10,306 nucleotides of DNA, taken from a virus (lineage: Monodnaviria; Loebvirae; Hofneiviricota; Faserviricetes; Tubulavirales; Inoviridae). The stretch is from the IMG/VR virus record IMGVR_UViG_2541047900_000001; one strand, 5' to 3'. Position 1 is the stretch's first letter. Each line of letters begins with the position of its first letter. A program made the translations under genes and the position numbers. The notes under the pieces were generated by a model. The model ran no database searches. It had not been told where the DNA came from and saw only the letters and a list, made by a program, of their open reading frames with translations. Below are positions 1 to 10,306 of this stretch, piece by piece.

Positions 1-14
1 ACATTATGCGCACC
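1..14 (-). other. Partial dif site (XerC arm plus first 3 bases of the central region), truncated by the window edge
   Basis: Bases 1-14 ACATTATGCGCACC are the exact reverse complement of GGTGCGCATAATGT, i.e. the XerC arm GGTGCGCATAA plus TGT of the central region of the E. coli-type 28-bp dif site. The rest of the site would lie left of the window. Confidence 0.75.
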
Positions 15-885: not shown

Positions 886-2130
886 TCAGTTCAGGTTGTC
901 CCGGAACAGTTCACCGCTCCTCGCGGCGCTGCGGGGCGTCGCCCTGCTCCGGTCAACCTTTCTGACCTGAAGCATCACCATAATATCAGTCTTGTTGCTT
1001 TCACTGGTACGGGAACCGAAGAAGCTCCAGCCGGAACTGGCCTTACTGTCTTTCTGTTCAGCAAGGCCACCAAGTAAAATAATATCACCATCTGCAAGGC
1101 TGACTTCGGTTGTTACATCACGCTTGATAAGGGTTGGCGAGTTATTGACGCCGGTTTCAGTGGTCACAAAGTTGGAAAGCTGCTGCTGAATCTTGAGATC
1201 CATTGTCCGACTTTTGATTGATGGCGTCACGTTAAACAAAACACCGCTGGAACGATATTCAACGGATTGCGTTGTCGTATTGTTATTCACCGTAACACTG
1301 CCCAGTACTGGCACATCAGAGCCGACTGAAAAAGACGCTGAGGCATTATTTTTTACCCGCAGTCGTGGCGCACTGACAACAGTAAAACGACTGTCGGTTT
1401 TCAGCAGATTGAAAATGGCATCAATGGAGCCGGTTCGAATATTGATAAAATTATCCAGTCCGGCAGCACCAACTGAAATATTGAATTTATCAGACAGAAT
1501 TTTAGCCGCTAAAAGAATGCCGGAGCCGTCAGACTGCGAGGTCTGAACCTCAAAAACATAACCAGAAACAACCACTTCATCACTCATCGTATCCAGCGAA
1601 GTGACCAGTGTTTTCAGGATGGCGATATCCTCTTTCGTACCATAATAAACCAGAATATCACCGGTTCGATTGATGTAGTTGCTTGCCCCTGATGAACCTT
1701 TTAGCGAATCGTCAGAAATCACGGCTCCACTGTTATTGAAGGAGCCTGAAACGTAGCCGCCAAGAATATCAGACAGGTAAGCAACAGAACGGTACTGAGG
1801 CGTATAAGTCCATGTATAACGTGGCTTAACCGGCTCTTTCGGCGTATAGGGCGCGATAAAATCAACACCCTTTTTCGTCCATATTCGAATGTTCATATTG
1901 CCAAGATAACGGGTTACAAATTCCCGTTCATCAATATCAGGTGTTAACCTGAATGTAATCATTCGTTCATCATTAACAAGCTGTGGATCTAGCATATACG
2001 GGACTTTAAGCACCTCACTGTAAATAAGAGAAATAGCCTCCGGTAGCTTGACTTTATTTAATTCAAGCTCTGACCCTGCGAAAGCACATGAAGAAAATAG
2101 TAGCGTTAATGCGAGTAAAATCTTTTTCAT
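886..2130 (-). CDS. Filamentous-phage pIV-type outer-membrane secretin
   Basis: 414 aa with N-terminal signal peptide MKKILLALTLLFSSCAFA. C-terminal half has the secretin-like pattern (VVSAPRL..., SVG..VP..., ILLGGL) resembling Ff gene IV protein. Its ATG overlaps the upstream gene's TAA by 1 nt (2130). Confidence 0.88.
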   Translation of the reverse strand: MKKILLALTLLFSSCAFAGSELELNKVKLPEAISLIYSEVLKVPYMLDPQLVNDERMITFRLTPDIDEREFVTRYLGNMNIRIWTKKGVDFIAPYTPKEPVKPRYTWTYTPQYRSVAYLSDILGGYVSGSFNNSGAVISDDSLKGSSGASNYINRTGDILVYYGTKEDIAILKTLVTSLDTMSDEVVVSGYVFEVQTSQSDGSGILLAAKILSDKFNISVGAAGLDNFINIRTGSIDAIFNLLKTDSRFTVVSAPRLRVKNNASASFSVGSDVPVLGSVTVNNNTTTQSVEYRSSGVLFNVTPSIKSRTMDLKIQQQLSNFVTTETGVNNSPTLIKRDVTTEVSLADGDIILLGGLAEQKDSKASSGWSFFGSRTSESNKTDIMVMLQVRKVDRSRATPRSAARSGELFRDNLN

Positions 2131-3155
2131 TATTTTTTCCCCGTATAAAGCGTCACACGCTCACCATCAATAATTCCGCTCATCAACATCCCTTTGTAAT
2201 TAAAACTGGATGCAGGAACGGCACGCAAAACACCGGCACCGTTAACAAGAATCACAAACGCCCTGCCTTCACTGGTCATTCTCCCTGATATACGCCACTC
2301 GGTTGAAAGTGGCGGTTCAGCTGGTTCTGAGGGAGTATCTGGTGCTGGAGTAGCAGCGGAAGAACGAAACATGGCCGCATCACGTACATCTGTTGTAGTC
2401 AAATCTGGCGAGGGATCGCTTCGGCCAAACGTGCTGAAAAATGAGTAAATCAGCCAGCCTGACCCGATAAACATCAATGGAAAAAGCACAAGAAAGAACC
2501 TGACTTTGCCAGAATTCCAGATGCTCTGGCGTTTATCTGTCTGCTTTTCATTACCGTTATTTCCTTCATAACTTTTGTAAAGTTCAAAAATATCAGGGTT
2601 ATATTTATTGCGATAACTGGTGACGAGGTTGCTTTTATAGATTTTGTGGCCTGAATATACGTCAATGCAATAATGATTATTCAGGCCCAACGCTTTCAGC
2701 TTGCGCATCCGGTAAGTTGTTTCTATTTTGTCTTTCAGAAAGCGAGCAATATTAGAAAGTGACTGATTTACAATAACCAAATCACAGCTAATACCCGTTT
2801 CAGGGTGCGTAAAATGACGATGTTCAGCAATAAATGATTTCTTCTCAGCCGTCATATCCTTATCGCTACCGAAGATTCGCCATGCTTCATCAATAACAAT
2901 TAAATCACCAAACTGGCAAAAGCTCCCTTCCCCACCTTTAAAAGGAAAGAAATCTGCTTTAAGCACATCATCATTATCCACAACAATAATTTCTCCCGTT
3001 GCATCAGGATAACGTTCGGTGATTTTATCTTTTTGTAAACCATAAATGTTCGTCACAACTCTCCGGCCGCTGGTAAATGCCGGAATAATGACATTGTAAA
3101 CGGCTTCATAACTTTTTCCTGAGCCGGGTATGCCAATATATGCAGAAATAGCCAT
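2130..3155 (-). CDS. pI / Zot-family phage assembly ATPase
   Basis: 341 aa; Walker A P-loop GIPGSGKS at residues 8-15; central hydrophobic helix (FFLVLFPLMFIGSGWLIYSFF); Pro/Ser/Thr-rich C-terminal region. Position directly upstream of the secretin as in Ff, CTX-phi (zot). Confidence 0.88.
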   Translation of the reverse strand: MAISAYIGIPGSGKSYEAVYNVIIPAFTSGRRVVTNIYGLQKDKITERYPDATGEIIVVDNDDVLKADFFPFKGGEGSFCQFGDLIVIDEAWRIFGSDKDMTAEKKSFIAEHRHFTHPETGISCDLVIVNQSLSNIARFLKDKIETTYRMRKLKALGLNNHYCIDVYSGHKIYKSNLVTSYRNKYNPDIFELYKSYEGNNGNEKQTDKRQSIWNSGKVRFFLVLFPLMFIGSGWLIYSFFSTFGRSDPSPDLTTTDVRDAAMFRSSAATPAPDTPSEPAEPPLSTEWRISGRMTSEGRAFVILVNGAGVLRAVPASSFNYKGMLMSGIIDGERVTLYTGKK

Positions 3156-3158
3156 AAC

Positions 3159-3446
3159 TCACCCTATAACAGGAATACGTCGAATAATAAAACGAGTAGC
3201 CATTGCGGAGATAATCATACTAATCCCCTGTGGTAATTTACTCAGGTTAATGAAGTACCAGAATCCGTCTGATAAATTGGCAAACAGCGATGAGAGATTG
3301 CTTGAATCTGGCAGTAACTCAACAAGGATTTCAACGAAGCCCTGGACTACAAAATACAGCGCAAAGAATACGACGAATTTAATAATCAATGACCGGAATA
3401 CAAAACCTAACAAAGTATTTAATGCACTAATCAGAATCCCAAACAT
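3159..3446 (-). CDS. pVI-like minor coat / membrane protein
   Basis: 95 aa, strongly hydrophobic; AAGGAG Shine-Dalgarno 7 nt upstream of ATG; lies between the pIII-like and pI genes as gene VI does in Ff phages. Confidence 0.6.
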   Translation of the reverse strand: MFGILISALNTLLGFVFRSLIIKFVVFFALYFVVQGFVEILVELLPDSSNLSSLFANLSDGFWYFINLSKLPQGISMIISAMATRFIIRRIPVIG

Positions 3447-3458
3447 AGTTGCACTCCT

Positions 3459-5171
3459 TTAGGCACTCAGAATAATACGGAGCGCAACAAATCCCCATAT
3501 AATCAGAAATATGGTTTCTACGGCGCTTCTGTTCTGCTCAATTAACGGACAATGGGAGTCAATTCTGTACTGGTGATTAAACACGCTGAATTCAACAACG
3601 GGGCAGGATGCTGAACGAGAGCCGATGTTAAATTCGTTTGTAAAAGGCAACAAGTTAATAATTGGCGTTAAAATATCTCTTGCCGTTGGCGTTTCTTCAA
3701 GCTCAGGCTCTTTTACACCGGGATCTTCTCCCAAATCTATATTGCCATTATTTCCAGTGTCAGATCCTGAGTTGTTATTAATGGTAATATCAATATTGAC
3801 GTCAGCCCCTGCACTGTCAGATACAGGTGAAAGCATATCTAATAACGTTGGAGATAGCCTAAGTTCCGACATCGCAGAAGTTACTTCAGCCGGTGAAACC
3901 TCTTTAAACGGTAAGCCGTTATAATCGGCATTAACGGCAGCTTCAGACCACAGCTCGTTAATCATGTCGGCAAGAAGTGCTGGCGATACACTAACACTAT
4001 CAAGATACTCCAGATAATCAATCATGGACTCAATATTTCCGGCCTCCAGTACTTCCGTCATGGCTTTATATTTGGTATTGGTCCAGATAGTAAGCTCACT
4101 CTTTTCATCAATATCTTTTGCGGTGTAATCCTCTTTTTCAGGAACGGCGCAAATCGTCGAATATCCACCATTTGACTGATTAGTCGTTTTACAAGGCGTG
4201 TTGTGATACTGATATTGCTTTCCTGCTGTTAAATAAGCAACGCTGTAATACATGGGAAGCCCTGCTACATTTTCATACATGGGAATACCTGCGGGAAATG
4301 AAGATGCGGCCGGGTTGCTATACAAGTGTGTAATCTCAGGTATTTCATAAAATGAGGAAGGATAAGTAAACTTATAATTCTGTTCAGTAAAGGATACATC
4401 TCCATTACTGTTGACAACTTTATTCGTCACAGTGCGTTCAAAATTCGTTAGTGTTTCAGTATAAGTACGCGAGTTATAGTCATTAAGATAATTTCTGGCA
4501 ATTTCAGTTGGATTATCACCATAGTAATAAATTAGCTCTTTCGAATCCTGATAATAATAAAGTGCATTATCTGGCGTGGAATATCCTGTTTCAACACCTA
4601 CAACTGGAGAACCCGCATCCACATTATTACGACTAACATGAAGGATTACCGGACTTAATTCCTGTGGTTCAAAATTAACGGTTATCGTCTTACTTTCACC
4701 ACTTTGACCACTGTACGTTACTTCATATAAATTATCGGAAATCTTTTTACCGTTAGTCATTACCATTACCGAGCCGTCAGATGAACTCAAAGAAGACGGA
4801 ACAAAAGATGATACAGCAGCAGCAATACCCGCCCACGTTGCAACACCGCTCATTTTGTATGATGAGGCAGCAGGCAAGTATTCGGCAGCATTAGCCGCAG
4901 CGCGGCCAACAAAAACACGGGTTGCTGTAAGCTGTGATGCCGTATAAATCGCATCATTGGCAGCAAAGCGACGAACAAGCACCCGGCCAACGACTTTAGG
5001 AATAACAGCCCGCGCAGCCACTGCTGCAATTGCTGGTACAAATGAATATGAATATCGGGGAAAGGAAACCCAGAGAAAGGAAAAAATAAAGGAATAAACC
5101 GTCAGCCTCTTAGCCCAAGAATAACGACATAAGCTGAGACGATCCCCCATAAAAGGGAACCCAATTTCCAT
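3459..5171 (-). CDS. pIII-like adsorption (receptor-binding) minor coat protein
   Basis: 570 aa; GGAG Shine-Dalgarno 7 nt upstream of the ATG at 5171; Gly/Ser/Asn-rich linker (NNNSGSDTGNNGN); C-terminal hydrophobic anchor (TIFLIIWGFVALRIIL); position after the major coat gene. The exact N-terminus is uncertain. Confidence 0.65.
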   Translation of the reverse strand: MEIGFPFMGDRLSLCRYSWAKRLTVYSFIFSFLWVSFPRYSYSFVPAIAAVAARAVIPKVVGRVLVRRFAANDAIYTASQLTATRVFVGRAAANAAEYLPAASSYKMSGVATWAGIAAAVSSFVPSSLSSSDGSVMVMTNGKKISDNLYEVTYSGQSGESKTITVNFEPQELSPVILHVSRNNVDAGSPVVGVETGYSTPDNALYYYQDSKELIYYYGDNPTEIARNYLNDYNSRTYTETLTNFERTVTNKVVNSNGDVSFTEQNYKFTYPSSFYEIPEITHLYSNPAASSFPAGIPMYENVAGLPMYYSVAYLTAGKQYQYHNTPCKTTNQSNGGYSTICAVPEKEDYTAKDIDEKSELTIWTNTKYKAMTEVLEAGNIESMIDYLEYLDSVSVSPALLADMINELWSEAAVNADYNGLPFKEVSPAEVTSAMSELRLSPTLLDMLSPVSDSAGADVNIDITINNNSGSDTGNNGNIDLGEDPGVKEPELEETPTARDILTPIINLLPFTNEFNIGSRSASCPVVEFSVFNHQYRIDSHCPLIEQNRSAVETIFLIIWGFVALRIILSA

Positions 5172-6086: not shown

Positions 6087-7139
6087 TTAATGCCAGTTAC
6101 TGGCATGTGAAATACGGTTATAATCGAAAATTAAACCTTTCTCATAAACCCATGATGGAATTTTGGCTGGTTTGGCTTCAAGAGTACGAACCAACGGAAC
6201 AACGTTATTAGAATCCGGTGACTCACAATAAAAGTTAATATCTATTCCGAAAGAAAGTAATTCTTTACGGTGTCGGTAGAATGTAGGTTTCGGTAACATC
6301 TCTTTCATGTTCGCGCCCTGCTTCCACAATAAATATGTAGACTGTATTTTTCTTGGGAGATTAATTATTTTTTCATCAGTTAATATAGTATTTTGATTCA
6401 TTTCTATTCTCCCTACATAGTCAGAGAATAATTTATTGGGCGTCTCAATATTCCAGCTATTACCAAGCGTAAGATTCAAATCAATTAATTCAGTTGTTCT
6501 TAATGTTAATTCAATGCGTAATTTATCTTTTGACCAGTCCAGTAAACCAGCTTTAACGAATTCGTCTGCCATCTGGTGCCCTTTTTTGCCAGATGTATGC
6601 TCATCATATTTTGAATAAAATTTCAGGCTCCAACGACGGGAGTTTTTCCCTAAGTAAACAGTGCCACCTTTACCACAGGCGCGACCGTGGCGAGTTTTAG
6701 CTTTAAATTCTGCGGCATATAACCATGCGCGGACATTTTCTAATGTTGACAATGAATACATGTAATTGATATCGATGCGCGAGATCTTAAATTGCCCTTC
6801 CATGACCTGCCGATAGGATGGTAGATCATGAGGAATATGCAGTAATGCCAATATTCTGGCGTAAGCTGTTAACACCAACCCTTGCAAATCGTCGGAACCG
6901 ATAACAGAGTGACCTTGCAAAAACTTTGATGGATTACCGTCAATGTAGAGATGTGTTGCCCGACCTTCACCATCAGATCCAACAGACCTTACTTTCATTG
7001 TGGACTCATGCGAACCGCGAACGGTCAACCGTTTTACTGTTTCCCACTCCACTGCACCGTCAGCATCGACGCTGACGACACTACCAGCCGGTAACGGTCG
7101 GTGTGTGCAAGGCAGGATTCCGGTAAACCAGTCGATCAT
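6087..7139 (-). CDS. Rolling-circle replication initiation protein (gene II / RstA-like)
   Basis: 350 aa; first gene of the minus-strand module, divergent from the HTH repressor as rstA is from rstR in CTX-phi. Size and position typical of inovirus replication initiators. Confidence 0.8.
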   Translation of the reverse strand: MIDWFTGILPCTHRPLPAGSVVSVDADGAVEWETVKRLTVRGSHESTMKVRSVGSDGEGRATHLYIDGNPSKFLQGHSVIGSDDLQGLVLTAYARILALLHIPHDLPSYRQVMEGQFKISRIDINYMYSLSTLENVRAWLYAAEFKAKTRHGRACGKGGTVYLGKNSRRWSLKFYSKYDEHTSGKKGHQMADEFVKAGLLDWSKDKLRIELTLRTTELIDLNLTLGNSWNIETPNKLFSDYVGRIEMNQNTILTDEKIINLPRKIQSTYLLWKQGANMKEMLPKPTFYRHRKELLSFGIDINFYCESPDSNNVVPLVRTLEAKPAKIPSWVYEKGLIFDYNRISHASNWH

Positions 7140-7277
7140 AAGTAGTCACACCCATCAAAATATGTGTCAATAGTCATTTGTGAGCAGATTGAATGGTCAC
7201 AATGTAATATGCTCAGATCTGACAGTCAATACATTTGCAATGTTTAAATTGTCAAAAATGAGCATCAAATCTAACTA
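7140..7277. promoter_or_regulatory. Divergent control region between replication gene and repressor (copy 1); probable promoters, operators and possibly the origin
   Basis: 138-bp AT-rich spacer between divergent genes. Contains a perfect 10-bp palindrome TCAGATCTGA (7213..7222), an inverted repeat TGTGA...TCACA (7180..7200) and three TGTCAA-like motifs (7165-7171, 7224-7230, 7250-7256). Exact -35/-10 elements could not be assigned. Confidence 0.55.
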
Positions 7278-7712
7278 TTGATGAAGTTATGGCGGACAAA
7301 CAGAGAGCAGAACGGTATCAAAAAGGTAATTCTGGAACACTCGACTTATGAAGAACTGGCCGAGAAGACTGGCATTAGCGTGAGTACGCTGGTCAGGATA
7401 GCGTCCGGCAAAACTGAACCTAAATTCAGTGACATCATTCAGATAGCTAAAATTACGGGTGCAGACTTAAACACCTTAGCTTATGGCTATGCTCTTGATG
7501 TTAAAGAAGAAGCTACCGAGCGGAAGCTAATCACTTCTGCGGATGGATATACTGATGAAGAAACCACTAACGCACATAATTTCATCGTGTGGAACATCAG
7601 GACACTGGAAAAACAAGATATTCTGGCACTCGCAAGGCAGGTTTCTGCCTTAAGTTCATACACTTACAGTACTAAAATGTTTATGAAAAAAGCGGTGTCT
7701 GGAGAAGAGTAA
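7278..7712 (+). CDS. HTH (XRE/Cro-C1-type) repressor, copy 1 with altered 5' end; possibly non-functional
   Basis: 144 aa, identical to copy 2 from IKKVILEH onward. Lacks the 46-bp segment carrying copy 2's Shine-Dalgarno and start, begins at TTG/ATG without a recognisable ribosome-binding site, and an extra G changes the first ~12 residues. Confidence 0.45.
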   Translation: MMKLWRTNREQNGIKKVILEHSTYEELAEKTGISVSTLVRIASGKTEPKFSDIIQIAKITGADLNTLAYGYALDVKEEATERKLITSADGYTDEETTNAHNFIVWNIRTLEKQDILALARQVSALSSYTYSTKMFMKKAVSGEE

Positions 7713-7726
7713 AAGGATTAACAGTC

Positions 7727-7879
7727 TCAGGAATGAGACAAACGTGCAGTATTACCGCGAACGGTCAACCGTTTTACTGTTTCCCACTCCACTGCACCGT
7801 CAGCATCGACGCTGACGACACTACCAGCCGGTAACGGTCGGTGTGTGCAAGGCAGGATTCCGGTAAACCAGTCGATCAT
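7727..7879 (-). pseudogene. Truncated duplicate of the replication gene 5' end (42 native codons plus 8 out-of-frame codons)
   Basis: 7754..7879 matches 7014..7139 (rep codons 1-42); reading continues into the reverse complement of the repressor copy 1 3' region and stops after 8 codons. Confidence 0.8.
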
Positions 7880-8050
7880 AAGTAGTCACACCCATCAAAA
7901 TATGTGTCAATAGTCATTTGTGAGCAGATTGAATGGTCACAATGTAATATGCTCAGATCTGACAGTCAATACATTTGCAATGTTTAAATTGTCAAAAATG
8001 AGCATCAAATCTAACTATTGAAAAACCACTGTTAAGATGGAGCCAAGTAG
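7880..8050. promoter_or_regulatory. Divergent control region, copy 2, with extra 46-bp segment providing the repressor ribosome-binding site and start
   Basis: Same motifs as copy 1 (palindrome TCAGATCTGA at 7953..7962), plus 8021..8066 containing GGAG about 9 nt upstream of the ATG at 8051. Confidence 0.55.
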
Positions 8051-8497
8051 ATGGGCAACAATGAGCATGAAGTTATGGCGGACAAACAGAGAGCAGAACG
8101 TATCAAAAAGGTAATTCTGGAACACTCGACTTATGAAGAACTGGCCGAGAAGACTGGCATTAGCGTGAGTACGCTGGTCAGGATAGCGTCCGGCAAAACT
8201 GAACCTAAATTCAGTGACATCATTCAGATAGCTAAAATTACGGGTGCAGACTTAAACACCTTAGCTTATGGCTATGCTCTTGATGTTAAAGAAGAAGCTA
8301 CCGAGCGGAAGCTAATCACTTCTGCGGATGGATATACTGATGAAGAAACCACTAACGCACATAATTTCATCGTGTGGAACATCAGGACACTGGAAAAACA
8401 AGATATTCTGGCACTCGCAAGGCAGGTTTCTGCCTTAAGTTCATACACTTACAGTACTAAAATGTTTATGAAAAAAGCGGTGTCTGGAGAAGAGTAA
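8051..8497 (+). CDS. HTH (XRE/Cro-C1-type) transcriptional repressor, intact copy
   Basis: 148 aa; helix-turn-helix segment STYEELAEKTGISVSTLVRIASGKTEPKFSDIIQIAKITGADL matches the XRE pattern; GGAG Shine-Dalgarno; divergent from the replication gene as rstR is in CTX-phi. Confidence 0.85.
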   Translation: MGNNEHEVMADKQRAERIKKVILEHSTYEELAEKTGISVSTLVRIASGKTEPKFSDIIQIAKITGADLNTLAYGYALDVKEEATERKLITSADGYTDEETTNAHNFIVWNIRTLEKQDILALARQVSALSSYTYSTKMFMKKAVSGEE

Positions 8498-8525
8498 AAG
8501 GATTAACAGTCTCAGGAATGAGACA

Positions 8526-8554
8526 AACGTGCAGTATTACCAACACTGCACGTT
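8526..8554 (+). terminator. Putative rho-independent terminator of the repressor gene
   Basis: Perfect 10-bp inverted repeat AACGTGCAGT (8526-8535) / ACTGCACGTT (8545-8554), 9-nt loop, then CTTTATTGTG. Only the left half is present after copy 1 (7741-7750). Confidence 0.6.
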
Positions 8555-8593: not shown

Positions 8594-9016
8594 ATGATGA
8601 GTAGAAATAACGAAACAAGCGGCGTTGAATTGGTTGTCGTGGGCGTATTTGCTTTCTGTCTGGCAGTTGTTGCCTGGTTAATGAAAACTTTCGATGTTGA
8701 ATGGCAAACAGCACTGGAAACTGCGCCTGGCCTGATAGTCTGGTTGCTTGTTGTCGGTGCGGGGATCTTTTTCGGGATCAAAATGGAAACAGGTCTTGTT
8801 CGCTGGGGTGCCCCACTGGCGATCGCCCTTCTGATTCCGGTATTCAAACCAATTCTTAAGGAAGCTGCCGGAGTACGTGAAATGGGTGGGTTGGTTTTCG
8901 ATGATATGGTTTCGTGGTACGGAACTGGCTGGGGAATGTCTCTGATGTTTTTTGGAATTCTTATCGTCGGATACGGTCTGCTTTATTGGTGGCACCGAAG
9001 AAATTCATATTATTGA
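8594..9016 (+). CDS. Small integral membrane protein (about 4 predicted transmembrane helices), function unknown
   Basis: 140 aa; AGGA Shine-Dalgarno 5 nt upstream of the ATG; four hydrophobic segments (VVVGVFAFCLAVVAWLM, LIVWLLVVGAGIFFGI, APLAIALLIPVF, MSLMFFGILIVGYGLLYWW). Antisense ORFs 8557..8847 and 8678..8995 judged to be shadows. Confidence 0.7.
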   Translation: MMSRNNETSGVELVVVGVFAFCLAVVAWLMKTFDVEWQTALETAPGLIVWLLVVGAGIFFGIKMETGLVRWGAPLAIALLIPVFKPILKEAAGVREMGGLVFDDMVSWYGTGWGMSLMFFGILIVGYGLLYWWHRRNSYY

Positions 9017-9117: not shown

Positions 9118-10221
9118 ATGAGAAAAAAGATGCCGGACTTGATTACTGATACATTGAAAGTAGTTACTTCTTTTTTTGTGGCATTAGTCCTCAATAAGTT
9201 TTTATCTATATTTAGGAAAAGACAACTTTACTTATCCTGTTGGAACTCCTTGAGTAAAACCTCAATATCTGACAATGCAATAGTAATAAATGCATCAGTA
9301 TTTAATAAAGGTAAGGATAAAGAAAAAAATGTAGAAATAAAAGTCCCAAACGGTATGTCTTGTACTGTAATTGCAAGTGATCATGATGCAACTACCGAAG
9401 GTTCTTTTGTGAAGATAGATAGAATATTAGCAAATAAAAAAATATCCATGGTGCTCTTGATTGAAGGAACAAGAGTTCTTGATAAAAGTACCATGCCTTC
9501 CATAAGATCAGAAGATACTGACGGGAAAACATACCTTTCAAAAGACTCAGTGCCACCGAGTGCAGGTTCTTTTATTTTAGGCGGTGCTATTTTTGCTGCA
9601 TTTTTCAGTTATATGGTCATCAGTATCCAAACAGAAGACAACCCTCTCGCGGGCCCATTGAAAGCATATAACTACATGATTTATAACAATATGTACAATT
9701 CTGGACTTTCGATTAATCCTATAGGTAATGGACTGATAACTGAAAATTACAATCTAAGAGCGAATGAATACCCTATTGAAATAATAGATGCCAAGATAGA
9801 AAAAAATCAAATAATGTTCAAATTTAGAATAATTAATAAAACATCAGAAGCACTGAAAGTTTCAGGCGGATGGAGAATATATAAAAACTTTCAATATATT
9901 TCCGAACATGTTGATACATTTGATTATAAAGATGAAAAGAAAAGAGAAGAAGAAGAAATAAGGGTGTATAAGAAATACAATGTGGAATTTGTTAATGATA
10001 ATGGATATCTTATGGAAAAACCGAAAGAAAGGGTTGAAGTTCCTGCAAATTCAGTTGGCTATATTATAATAAACAGAAAATACTCTCCAAGCATTACTTA
10101 TAATGACCTAAACATCGAGTTTAACTTTAGTGGTGGTTCAGGTGAAATATACCAAGAAGCAGATATGCTTTTTACAGCTAAGAATTCTAATATAAGCAGT
10201 ACTATATTAGACAAGAAATAA
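9118..10221 (+). CDS. AT-rich hypothetical membrane protein with two predicted transmembrane helices and large Lys/Asn/Ile/Tyr-rich domains; function unknown
   Basis: 367 aa uninterrupted ORF in visibly AT-rich DNA, unlike the rest of the window. Hydrophobic helices near the N-terminus (VVTSFFVALVLNKFLSIF) and mid-protein (FILGGAIFAAFFSYMVISI). Weak Shine-Dalgarno; a second in-frame ATG 4 codons downstream is an alternative start. Confidence 0.7.
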   Translation: MRKKMPDLITDTLKVVTSFFVALVLNKFLSIFRKRQLYLSCWNSLSKTSISDNAIVINASVFNKGKDKEKNVEIKVPNGMSCTVIASDHDATTEGSFVKIDRILANKKISMVLLIEGTRVLDKSTMPSIRSEDTDGKTYLSKDSVPPSAGSFILGGAIFAAFFSYMVISIQTEDNPLAGPLKAYNYMIYNNMYNSGLSINPIGNGLITENYNLRANEYPIEIIDAKIEKNQIMFKFRIINKTSEALKVSGGWRIYKNFQYISEHVDTFDYKDEKKREEEEIRVYKKYNVEFVNDNGYLMEKPKERVEVPANSVGYIIINRKYSPSITYNDLNIEFNFSGGSGEIYQEADMLFTAKNSNISSTILDKK

Positions 10222-10227
10222 TTAATT

Positions 10228-10254
10228 GGTTCGCACAATGACGTTATGCTAAAG
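10228..10254 (+). other. Degenerate dif-like sequence (candidate Xer recombination site) with a 5-bp central region
   Basis: GGTTCGCACAA TGACG TTATGCTAAAG versus dif GGTGCGCATAA TGTATA TTATGTTAAAT: 9/11 matches in each arm, central region one base short. Orientation is inverted relative to the dif fragment at 1-14. Confidence 0.4.
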
Positions 10255-10290
10255 AGGCCGCTGCGGAGGCCATTTTCGCAGCGGCCTTTT
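10255..10290 (+). terminator. Putative rho-independent terminator downstream of the AT-rich gene
   Basis: GC-rich inverted repeat AGGCCGCTGCG (10255-10265) / CGCAGCGGCCT (10277-10287) followed by TTT; flanked by a further inverted pair CGTTATG / CATAACG. Confidence 0.55.
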
Positions 10291-10306
10291 CAACATAACG
10301 AGTCGC

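Follow-up and report, generated by a model that had tools for sequence, protein, structure and literature searches.

The 10,306-nt window analysed here, the whole stretch of DNA, is a filamentous prophage (inovirus) of the CUS-1/YpfPhi type, XerCD-integrated at dif in Escherichia coli UMEA 3161-1, and it carries a direct tandem duplication with one end in the loop of a stable hairpin behind the repressor gene. The same loop position serves as a breakpoint in at least seven independent duplications or rearrangements, the window included. We consider it likely that this hairpin is the plus-strand origin, ori(+), that the replication protein (Rep) linked a pseudo-site ending in GT^ with the nick at the origin and that the duplication is the scar of this rolling-circle error.

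Scaffold KE701760.1 (GCA_000460455.1), from a short-read draft assembly, contains the window exactly and without Ns; the window spans the prophage from its XerC arm to just before the next XerC-arm copy. The scaffold reads ATTTAACATAATAT followed by ACATTATGCGCACC at the left end, and the same 14 nt recur directly after the last base of the window, a duplicated XerC-side arm at a chromosomal dif site adjoining hipBA; a perfect 28-nt dif spans the equivalent left end in a related locus (L001). The Xer/dif, CTXphi-like setting supposed in a previous sequence-only reading is thereby borne out. A 9565-bp circular record from strain TUM14759 covers the whole window, showing circular replication of the phage in at least one strain; the plasmid collection contains only this circular copy and one integrated copy, both single-unit. 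Pfam matches (PF05144, PF05155, PF17426, PF05707 and PF00263) and gene order identified the inovirus core of gene II-type Rep, G5P, coat, Zot/pI and secretin. Matches of 99–100% identity occur in UTI89-lineage and other E. coli (ExPEC) genomes, and Y. pestis carries an identical origin and repressor-side flank; the CUS-1/YpfPhi assignment is based on these genomes. Searching the phage collection by megablast with the complete window returned no match, and I2-2 was retrieved there only through a tblastn search with Rep. Rep-bearing E. coli genomes hold a median of two rep copies and up to five, so that tandem arrays are the norm in these phages, in agreement with published work on YpfPhi and UPPhi (PMC4266046, PMC7307601).

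Repeat search and pairwise alignment resolved two direct tandem units (Table 1) with no mismatches between them, a perfect 740-bp repeat that far exceeds chance; unit 1 differs from unit 2 only in lacking 46 bp and in carrying one extra base. The 46-bp segment, present in unit 2 alone (8022–8067), contains a ribosome-binding site (GGAG) as well as the ATG at 8051, and the extra G of unit 1 lies at 7314–7315 (GG), against a single G at 8100. The trinucleotide ACC is common to 7014–7016, 7754–7756 and 8539–8541. These data confirm the duplication and both indels as the sequence-only reading had described them, together with its assignment of an intact repressor with ribosome-binding site and a 50-codon rep stub to unit 2, of a repressor deprived of its start segment with an intact HTH to unit 1, and of the complete hairpin to the distal copy only.

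Table 1. Features of the prophage in the window (positions in window coordinates)
Feature	Position	Strand	Remarks
XerC-arm half of dif, ACATTATGCGCACC	1–14		left prophage end
Full rep, 350 aa, gene II/X family initiator	6087–7139	-	PF05144 (1.2e-73), PF05155 (3.6e-34)
Unit 1, 740 bp	7014–7753		rep codons 42–1, control region, altered repressor, putative origin 3' half
Control region, copy 1	7140–7280		identical to 7880–8020
Repressor allele 1, 143 aa	7281–7712	+	altered 5' end, HTH intact
Putative hybrid half-origin	7724–7753	-	small hairpin 7724–7739, plus nick-hairpin 3' arm and AAT (7741–7753)
Rep stub ORF, 50 codons	7727–7879	-	42 Rep codons and 8 from the junction
Unit 2, 785 bp	7754–8538		rep stub, control region with ribosome-binding site, intact repressor, putative origin 3' half
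Intact XRE/HTH_3 repressor, 148 aa	8051–8497	+	Pfam HTH_3 (1.6e-9); divergent from rep
Putative ori(+)	8509–8554	-	small hairpin 8509–8524 and nick hairpin 8526–8554
XerD-arm-like sequence and spacer, TTCAACATAACGAGTCGC	10289–10306		joins position 1 in the circular form, giving a dif-like attP

Full-length Rep is 57.8% identical to the gene II protein of phage I2-2. In the stub, the tail encoded from the junction onwards reads GNTARLSHS-stop, and the exact stub sequence had no match in a collection of 15 billion proteins. A promoter-like TTGACT-17-TACATT (7229 to 7201, minus strand; a consensus match only) faces rep. The intact repressor is an rstR-like immunity gene whose exact sequence occurs on at least 1000 contigs and whose 90%-identity cluster has 277 member sequences. 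In allele 1 the 46-bp deletion removed both the ribosome-binding site and the start codon; a new ATG at 7281 opens in another frame, with no Shine–Dalgarno sequence, and the additional G restores the repressor frame at IKKVILEH, which leaves the HTH intact. The exact allele 1 protein is known from a single public record, EQX19563.1 of E. coli UMEA 3161-1. Among the listed matches of the region to complete E. coli genomes, 30 of 30 are interrupted by a gap of ~45 bp, the size predicted from the 46-bp segment, indicating that the repressor 5' end of unit 2 is ancestral; 97 of the 100 listed records, complete E. coli genomes, cover at least 80% of the query.

The hairpin lies directly 3' of the repressor gene and has a 10-bp stem (AACGTGCAGT-ATTACCAAC-ACTGCACGTT), reading GTGCAGT GTTGGT^AAT ACTGCAC on the phage plus strand (AACGTGCAGT GTTGGT^AAT ACTGCACGTT). 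Its predicted DNA fold is very stable (-16.2 kcal/mol, z -5.4). The junction copy retains only the 3' arm and AAT, fused at 7753/7754 to rep codon 42, and forms no strong hairpin (-10.6 kcal/mol, z -2.0). We infer from these sequences that the complete hairpin is ori(+) and that Rep would nick its loop on the minus (phage plus) strand between 8539 and 8538, most likely at T^A (GGT^AAT), a position deduced from the one 3-nt interval common to five junction types. The sequence-only reading had raised the possibility of an origin within the duplicated region; the putative nick coincides with the duplication boundary itself. On the plus strand of the window, the hairpin probably also terminates the repressor transcript.

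Comparison with related replication modules is consistent with this assignment. All loop variants retain T^AAT, also in divergent phages, the loop being conserved together with the cognate Rep, and the same hairpin (GAACGTGCAGTGTATGTAATACTGCAACGTT) precedes gene II in the I2-2 intergenic region. Gene II protein of M13 nicks TT/AA in a hairpin loop (PMC11765958); the M13 nick hairpin reads GAGTCCAC-GTTCTTTAATA-GTGGACTC, and its loop, GTTCTTT^AATA, resembles the GTTGGT^AAT of the window phage. In CTXphi, RstA nicks the apical loop of the Ig-1 hairpin adjoining rstR (PMC4439123, PMC8265649). We found no origin described in the literature for the CUS-1, YpfPhi, UPPhi and I2-2 replication module, a search on the I2-2 origin returned no paper, and the YpfPhi review and UPPhi paper (PMC4266046, PMC7307601) describe no origin, nick site or partial rep-stub duplication.

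Further evidence comes from the recurrence of the breakpoint. The rearranged loci reside in E. coli, Yersinia enterocolitica, Klebsiella and a metagenome contig and represent two heteroimmune phage types, and every junction keeps ^AATACTGCACGTTTGTCTCA on the origin side, at the same 3-nt position in the hairpin loop. The opposite breakpoint varies among five partner sites: rep codon 42 in the window (...CGCGGT^) and in L004; rep codon 35 in L003 and in the Y. enterocolitica loci L005, L006 and L020; rep codon 30 in L007; coat codon ~30 in L041; and secretin codon 44 in L012. The L004 phage is heteroimmune, its stub bears SNPs of its own, and its junction, identical to that of the window, comes from an independent complete genome. 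Stub duplications span 754–785 bp; the largest unit, the 2419-bp duplication of L041, carries a complete rep, g5 and an 83-aa ORF in a phage 100% identical in protein to that of the window. Units within each genome differ by 0–2 mismatches, indicating recent events that were formed in place.

All five partner sites end in GT, a dinucleotide accounting for 5.9% of those on that strand, so that five of five would arise by chance with a probability of ~7e-7; a shared GT is also expected from microhomology annealing. Each junction type shows 2–4 nt of microhomology (GGT, GTAA, GT, GTA and GT). The 3-bp sharing of ACC seen in the sequence-only reading is present; the junction does not represent an arbitrary microhomology event, the breakpoint recurring in at least seven events with five partner sites. 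Random microhomology would place breakpoints without a specific site across independent events, and seven events share the same origin side. This recurrence points to a site-specific, Rep-mediated step. Three junction types were recovered without relying on the origin-side breakpoint, by junction-spanning BLAST and a search for Rep N-terminal stubs, and the other two by a pattern requiring an intact AATACTG..., which breakpoints further 3' would have escaped.

Beyond GT, no convincing likeness between partner sites and origin was detected. The 8-nt GTGCAGTG of the origin 5' arm occurs in rep beside three partner sites and was set aside, because its spacing varies and a single match of 8 nt carries no significance in a sequence of 9.6 kb. 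Among 57 matches to the left part of the origin, no reciprocal junction (origin 5' arm joined to foreign DNA) was found in a phage context: the native 3' half follows in 55, and the remaining two are chance 15–17-mers in unrelated GC-rich contigs. Most loci had been fetched through the 3' half, which makes this lack weak evidence. Several candidates from the stub-protein search that resembled additional origin junctions were discarded on inspection of the DNA, P0004/L008 and P0005 representing internal rep deletions or frameshifts and P0008 a frameshifted full-length rep. A stub count obtained by subtracting internal rep matches from matches to the rep 5' end failed, since the 90-nt queries differ in sensitivity (99 records and 178 places against 111 records and 202 places, respectively); copy numbers agree where a genome is listed in both searches, indicating that most multi-copy cases are full tandem prophages.

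A Rep-independent hot spot, arising where replication stalls at the palindrome or where a host hairpin nuclease such as SbcCD cuts it, with rejoining at microhomologies of 2–4 nt through slippage or template switching, would yield tandem duplications beginning at the hairpin. It would account for the microhomology at every junction and for the involvement of so stable a hairpin, and microhomology deletions unrelated to the origin also occur in a degraded Klebsiella array. We regard it as rather unlikely, because breakage and resection should scatter ends over stem and loop, whereas the five junction types fall within one 3-nt interval; a 5' arm retained without its 3' half is seen at no junction in a phage context, and the breakpoint matches the position at which M13 gene II protein cuts its loop (PMC11765958). 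The frequency of tandem arrays in this family gives some weight to the collapse of two head-to-tail copies at dif through a deletion between the origin loop of the first and rep codon 42 of the second, which would remove one genome length minus 785 bp. Its product is structurally identical to that of a local duplication, so that the window sequence does not distinguish the two. Such a collapse nevertheless needs a deletion of ~8.8 kb with the same precise origin endpoint each time, and would still require a site-specific step; moreover, the L041 and window prophages each consist of exactly one unit plus the duplication between XerC-arm repeats, which is most simply obtained by integration of an already duplicated circle. 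Collapse is distinctly unlikely in our assessment.

An assembly artefact, in which the assembler placed in tandem a wild-type variant of the region and one with the 46-bp deletion and +1 insertion, appears highly improbable. The UMEA 3161-1 sequence is a draft scaffold, an additional base within a run of Gs is typical of sequencing errors, and the unit 1 allele is absent from every other public record. Against these points, the region contains no Ns, the junction sequence must itself be present in reads, L004 provides the same junction in a complete genome, and analogous junctions exist in other assemblies, including the complete Y. enterocolitica chromosome CP030980.

Under the favoured Rep-mediated explanation, Rep would cleave a look-alike ...GT^ site in displaced single-stranded DNA, at rep codon 42 in the case of the window, and the cleaved end would be joined to the 5' end that nicking of the origin creates. 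This could follow a read-through of the origin with termination 785 nt late, giving a 'maxi' genome that integrates at dif, or an early termination releasing a 785-nt mini-circle that recombines back into the phage. Both routes would yield the order native origin, unit 2, hybrid half-origin, unit 1 and rest of the phage, with junctions of the form N..GT joined to AATACTGCAC, recognisable as AATACTGCACG preceded by something other than the origin 5' arm. The product would be a largely neutral scar: the working repressor of the distal unit would act in trans on both identical control regions, and the redundant copy beside rep has already started to decay, through the 46-bp deletion and the 1-bp insertion. 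The mechanism class is known from M13 nick-site recombination and CTXphi RS1 arrays; the deduction of the nick site for this phage group appears to be new. Michel and Ehrlich (1986) reportedly observed termination at pseudo-sites in M13 and pC194, and rearrangements in f1/M13 (Dotto, Horiuchi and Zinder; Michel and Ehrlich 1986) are said to join a nick end to the end of a weak look-alike site, with two-origin constructs reportedly resolving into two circles. Ff phages also show mini and maxi variants with duplicated origins.

The Rep of the window belongs with that of the Ff phages and I2-2 (gene II family, PF05144/PF05155) and probably differs in this from that of CTXphi, and a hairpin-loop nick with similar sequence would be shared with M13/f1 (PMC11765958); we assume that the Ff rules for initiation and termination sequences carry over. 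Ff phages neither integrate nor encode a repressor, and duplications of the type described here differ from theirs in being natural, fixed in the chromosome and recurrent across genera. CUS-1 (E. coli O18:K1:H7) and YpfPhi (Yersinia pestis) belong to the same group, integrate at dif beside hipBA and commonly form tandem copies (PMC4266046). UPPhi and I2-2 (Lineavirus) share the replication module and differ in structural genes; L004 combines Lineavirus-like structural genes with the Rep, origin and junction of the window, and I2-2 has the homologous hairpin without an intact repressor or integration.

Likeness to CTXphi, drawn from published descriptions, lies in Xer integration at dif, a divergent repressor/rep control region, a hairpin just beyond the repressor gene that is loop-nicked in CTXphi (PMC4439123), the presence next to a complete prophage of partial elements that bring an additional origin, and a replication backbone common to heteroimmune repressor modules (PMC8265649). 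RS1 carries complete rstA, rstB and rstC and replicates, whereas the extra unit of the window retains 42 of 350 rep codons and no complete replication gene; with its complete rep, g5 and 83-aa ORF, the L041 duplication is closer to an RS1-like element. Read along the phage plus strand, the native origin (8538/9) comes first and is followed by unit 2, the hybrid origin (7753/4), rep through secretin and the left end, so that no origin follows the structural genes. The RS1-like role implied in the sequence-only reading is therefore contradicted, as the half-origin lies upstream of the prophage in the rolling-circle direction and offers no downstream origin for full-length phage DNA from a solitary prophage; an extra origin in this position is non-productive for CTXphi (PMC8265649). 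By CTXphi rules, the solitary window prophage should yield no full-length phage DNA. The 740-bp mini-circle suggested in the same reading also requires correction: a circle between the two origins would correspond to unit 2, of 785 nt.

A more speculative and quite doubtful extension treats the native and hybrid half-origins as a two-origin cassette, from which derepressed Rep would release and amplify a 785-nt circle with the intact repressor and promoter. Immunity-gene dose would then rise exactly as replication starts, which would amount to self-limiting feedback or to a minimal satellite for immunity; repeated selection for such a cassette could explain the recurrence and persistence of the stubs, and RS1-like satellites in enterobacteria would have a natural precursor in the larger L041-type unit with its complete rep.

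The outcome for the window prophage is modest: of the two repressor copies in this solitary prophage, one works and the other is altered. Phages of the CUS-1, YpfPhi, UPPhi and I2-2 type are common in extraintestinal pathogenic E. coli, Yersinia, Salmonella and Klebsiella, and for their shared module the Rep-mediated explanation, if correct, would provide a testable prediction of ori(+) and of the Rep nick (GGT^AAT) at nucleotide level. Rep errors would leave recognisable scars in chromosomes, from 754–785-bp stubs up to a 2.4-kb unit that may be replication-capable, and would constitute a plausible origin of satellite or RS1-like elements and of truncated prophages. 'Partial replication protein' pseudogenes beside a second repressor at dif would accordingly call for caution in annotation, as products of Rep error rather than independent remnants.

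The tandem repeat described in the sequence-only reading is real and has the anatomy given there: a repeat search of the window and pairwise alignment recovered units of 740 bp (unit 1) and 785 bp (unit 2), with perfect direct repeats at 7014-7281 = 7754-8021 and 7315-7614 = 8100-8399, no substitutions between the units and ACC common to 7014, 7754 and 8539. Alignment also confirmed the indels, the sole differences being 46 bp that unit 2 alone has (8022-8067) and a single G added in unit 1 at 7314/7315. The unit 1 repressor ORF opens in another frame at a new ATG, and the extra G returns it to the repressor frame. The hairpin is complete in the distal copy alone.

Features of the duplicated region and its surroundings (window positions)
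Feature	Position	Strand	Unit or location
Unit 1	7014-7753
Unit 2	7754-8538
Full rep gene	6087-7139	minus	adjoins unit 1
Altered repressor ORF, 143 aa	starts at new ATG 7281		unit 1
Hybrid (half) origin	7753/7754		junction of the units
Rep stub, 50 codons	7727-7879	minus	unit 2
Intact HTH repressor, 148 aa	8051-8497		unit 2
24-nt direct repeat	7985-8008 and 8048-8071 (copy 1: 7245-7268)		repressor 5' end
HTH-coding repressor stretch, ~135 nt	about 7304-7440 and 8090-8224		both units
Complete hairpin (putative native origin)	8526-8554		distal copy
Cargo slot	9118-10221 (and 8594-9016)		between origin and right end
Imperfect 24-nt inverted repeat	10242-10300

The window encodes an inovirus gene set comprising a gene II/X-family Rep (PF05144, PF05155), G5P, Zot and a secretin, and is an exact, N-free substring of the E. 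coli UMEA 3161-1 scaffold. It begins with the XerC-arm repeat ACATTATGCGCACC and stops just short of the next copy of that repeat, which marks it as a solitary prophage of CUS-1/YpfPhi type, integrated at dif (cf. PMC4266046). At least 80% of its length was matched in 87 complete E. coli genomes, where the matching region measures ~9566 bp, one unit shorter than the window. One relative, L001, has a perfect dif across the left end and hipBA on the right. Strain TUM14759 (NZ_CP128883.1 and NZ_CP128877.1) also has the phage as a 9565-bp circular record covering the whole window and annotated 'untypable plasmid', besides three chromosomal places that match rep probes, which suggests active replication.

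Joining 10242-10306 to 1-14, as in the circular form, yields a dif-like site (TTCAACATAA-CGAGTCGCACA-TTATGCGCACC) whose spacer is 11 nt long rather than 6, and the inverted repeat, which includes the XerD-like arm, may represent a folded single-stranded attP, a terminator or both. A rep-repressor-origin copy, 99.6% identical, occurs at 72028-73801 of a 248-kb Klebsiella pneumoniae plasmid (NZ_CP132684.1; matches at two places); dimer-resolution sites of plasmids may be a further integration target of the phage. The cargo slot seems to be a place where defence or accessory genes vary: in the window it contains a 367-aa ORF without a Pfam match, within a stretch of 29-35% GC, and its equivalents are an 'abortive infection family protein' in L003, a PD-(D/E)XK nuclease in genome H24 and a short ORF in L004.

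This rep was found in about 100-110 of 5426 complete E. coli genomes at a median of two copies, in agreement with published tandem arrays (PMC4266046, PMC7307601), and at least two of those genomes have stub duplications by a junction query that does not recognise T3-type junctions. The exact window junction was absent from the complete E. coli genomes searched with this query; the like structures are those of L003 and L004. L003 shares the window's immunity type and has a 763-bp unit whose junction lies 22 bp deeper into rep. L004 combines Lineavirus-like structural genes with a repressor and control region unrelated to the window's, which makes it heteroimmune; its junction is that of the window, and its stub has L004's own SNPs. 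Further Rep N-terminal fusions came from a protein search with the 50-aa stub; their contigs, together with a scan of three collections for the conserved 20-mer that flanks the hairpin towards the repressor, supplied the remaining junctions tabulated here.

Junctions on the phage + strand (window minus strand), each written as the sequence 5' of ^AATACTGCAC..., with ^ the inferred Rep nick
Junction	Partner site	Sequence	Found in
Native origin		AACGTGCAGTGTTGGT	single-copy relatives; distal copy of each duplication
T1	rep codon 42	CCGTTCGCGGT	window; L004
T2	rep codon 35	GGGAAACAGT	L003; Y. enterocolitica L005/L006/L020 (other immunity type)
T3	rep codon 30	GACGGTGCAGT	L007
T4	secretin codon 44	AAAGTCCCGT	L012, degraded array, Klebsiella spallanzanii
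T5	coat codon ~30	GCATCAAGT	L041

Across seven independent events and five partner sites, the origin-side breakpoint is one and the same within the 3-nt microhomology ambiguity, and all five partner sites end in GT (chance ~7e-7 at a GT frequency of 5.9%). The units are identical or nearly so inside each genome, which indicates that the duplications are recent and were formed in place. L041 is a dif-integrated metagenome contig (OLQZ01000428.1) with proteins 100% identical to the window's; its 2419-bp origin-anchored duplication (1823-4242) comprises a complete repressor, rep, g5, an 83-aa ORF and 30 coat codons, an RS1-like partial element that may be able to replicate alone.

The degraded K. 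spallanzanii prophage array (L012, 5250-5420 and 7800-8000, with L016; NZ_CABGGS010000034.1) contains, besides its secretin-codon-44/origin junction, further deletions at microhomologies, from g3 into secretin and from coat into secretin, and two native hairpins 225 nt apart flanking a masked stretch. At 12040-12060 of L004, duplicated at T1, the T2 partner site ACAGT^AAAA reads ACACT, with no GT; this single case fits the GT^ rule.

The hairpin is read as a putative plus-strand origin, ori(+), because of its fold, the conservation of its loop, a counterpart in phage I2-2 and its likeness to the M13 and CTXphi elements. As DNA it is strong (-16.2 kcal/mol, z -5.4), which the junction copy is not. 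T^AAT in the loop is kept among divergent relatives, whose loops read GTTGGT, GTAGGT, GTATGT, GAATGT, GTAGT, ATTAGT or ATTATT, each followed by AAT. The same element (GAACGTGCAGTGTATGTAATACTGCAACGTT) recurs ~400 nt upstream of gene II in the intergenic region of non-integrating I2-2, and no named relative is closer to the window Rep than the I2-2 gene II protein (57.8% identity). The M13 gene II protein nicks TT/AA within a hairpin loop (PMC11765958); this hairpin reads GAGTCCAC-GTTCTTTAATA-GTGGACTC, with a loop much like the window-phage GTTGGTAAT. RstA, the CTXphi Rep, nicks the apical loop of the Ig-1 hairpin directly beside the repressor gene rstR (PMC4439123, PMC8265649), the same position relative to the repressor gene as in the window. 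Between hairpin and gene II of I2-2 (L009, 2720-2918, minus), the interval that carries the repressor in integrating relatives holds two short overlapping reverse ORFs of 44 and 46 aa, which may be a regulator gene remnant.

We propose that nicking would displace the 5' end AATAC... and that in a normal round Rep would cut the regenerated GGT^AAT and seal a unit circle. Were Rep in error to cut a ...GT^ site 785 nt beyond the origin and join it to the original 5' end, the product would be a circle with the native origin, a hybrid site (the partner site fused to the origin 3' half) and a tandem duplication of everything between the two sites; this predicted product is the structure observed in the window. 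The same product would arise if early termination gave a mini-circle that recombined homologously into the phage. Nick-site rearrangement of rolling-circle origins was reportedly described for M13 and pC194 by Michel and Ehrlich in 1986. Collapse of a tandem array would leave the same structure, indistinguishable from that of a Rep error, though it would still require a site-specific end. A Rep-independent break in the hairpin could also place an end there, but such breaks should leave scattered ends, unlike those seen, and this route is therefore less likely.

The sequence-only reading had left two candidate ancestral 5' ends for the repressor, and related prophages point to that of unit 2: among the matches listed, 30/30 complete E. 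coli genomes had their match to unit 1 broken by a ~45-bp gap, as expected for the absent 46-bp segment (97/100 records matching unit 1 reached at least 80% query coverage). Unit 2 is thus the ancestral form. An exact look-up of the unit 1 repressor returned a single public record, E. coli UMEA 3161-1. The 46-bp deletion and the extra G lie at most 34 nt apart in otherwise identical units and together leave a long ORF open; they could be a compensating pair or a coincidence. Expression of the unit 1 allele is doubtful, since it has no Shine-Dalgarno sequence. The control regions of both units are identical, and the distal repressor can therefore be expected to act on each. The 24-nt direct repeats (TAAATTGTCAAAAATGAGCATCAA / TAGATGGGCAACAATGAGCATGAA; 79% identical, 63 nt apart) span the repressor 5' end and are possible operator sites; the unit 1 deletion takes out most of the second copy. 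The HTH-coding stretch is 92-97% identical to HTH genes of conjugative plasmids of ~41-46 kb from E. coli, Salmonella and Shigella.

Rolling-circle synthesis leaves the origin, passes through the repressor gene in antisense and then reaches rep; in the prophage it therefore meets, in this order, the native origin, unit 2, the hybrid origin, unit 1 and the remaining phage as far as the left end. Beyond the structural genes the window prophage has no origin; the duplication therefore cannot play the role of a downstream RS1, the CTXphi satellite, and by CTXphi rules (PMC8265649) the solitary prophage should be non-productive. The 740-bp mini-circle suggested in the sequence-only reading needs revision, as a circle between the two origins would measure 785 nt; if the hybrid site can terminate, this circle would be released with the intact repressor. 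By f1 rules, a site without the 5' arm would be expected to initiate only, in which case free-circle replication would reduce the two units to one, bearing the altered repressor of unit 1. Neither the YpfPhi review nor the UPPhi paper speaks of an origin, a nick site or duplications with a rep stub. The window duplication is a new natural example of a kind of event already known, and its main value lies in a predicted nick site and a catalogue of recurring scars.
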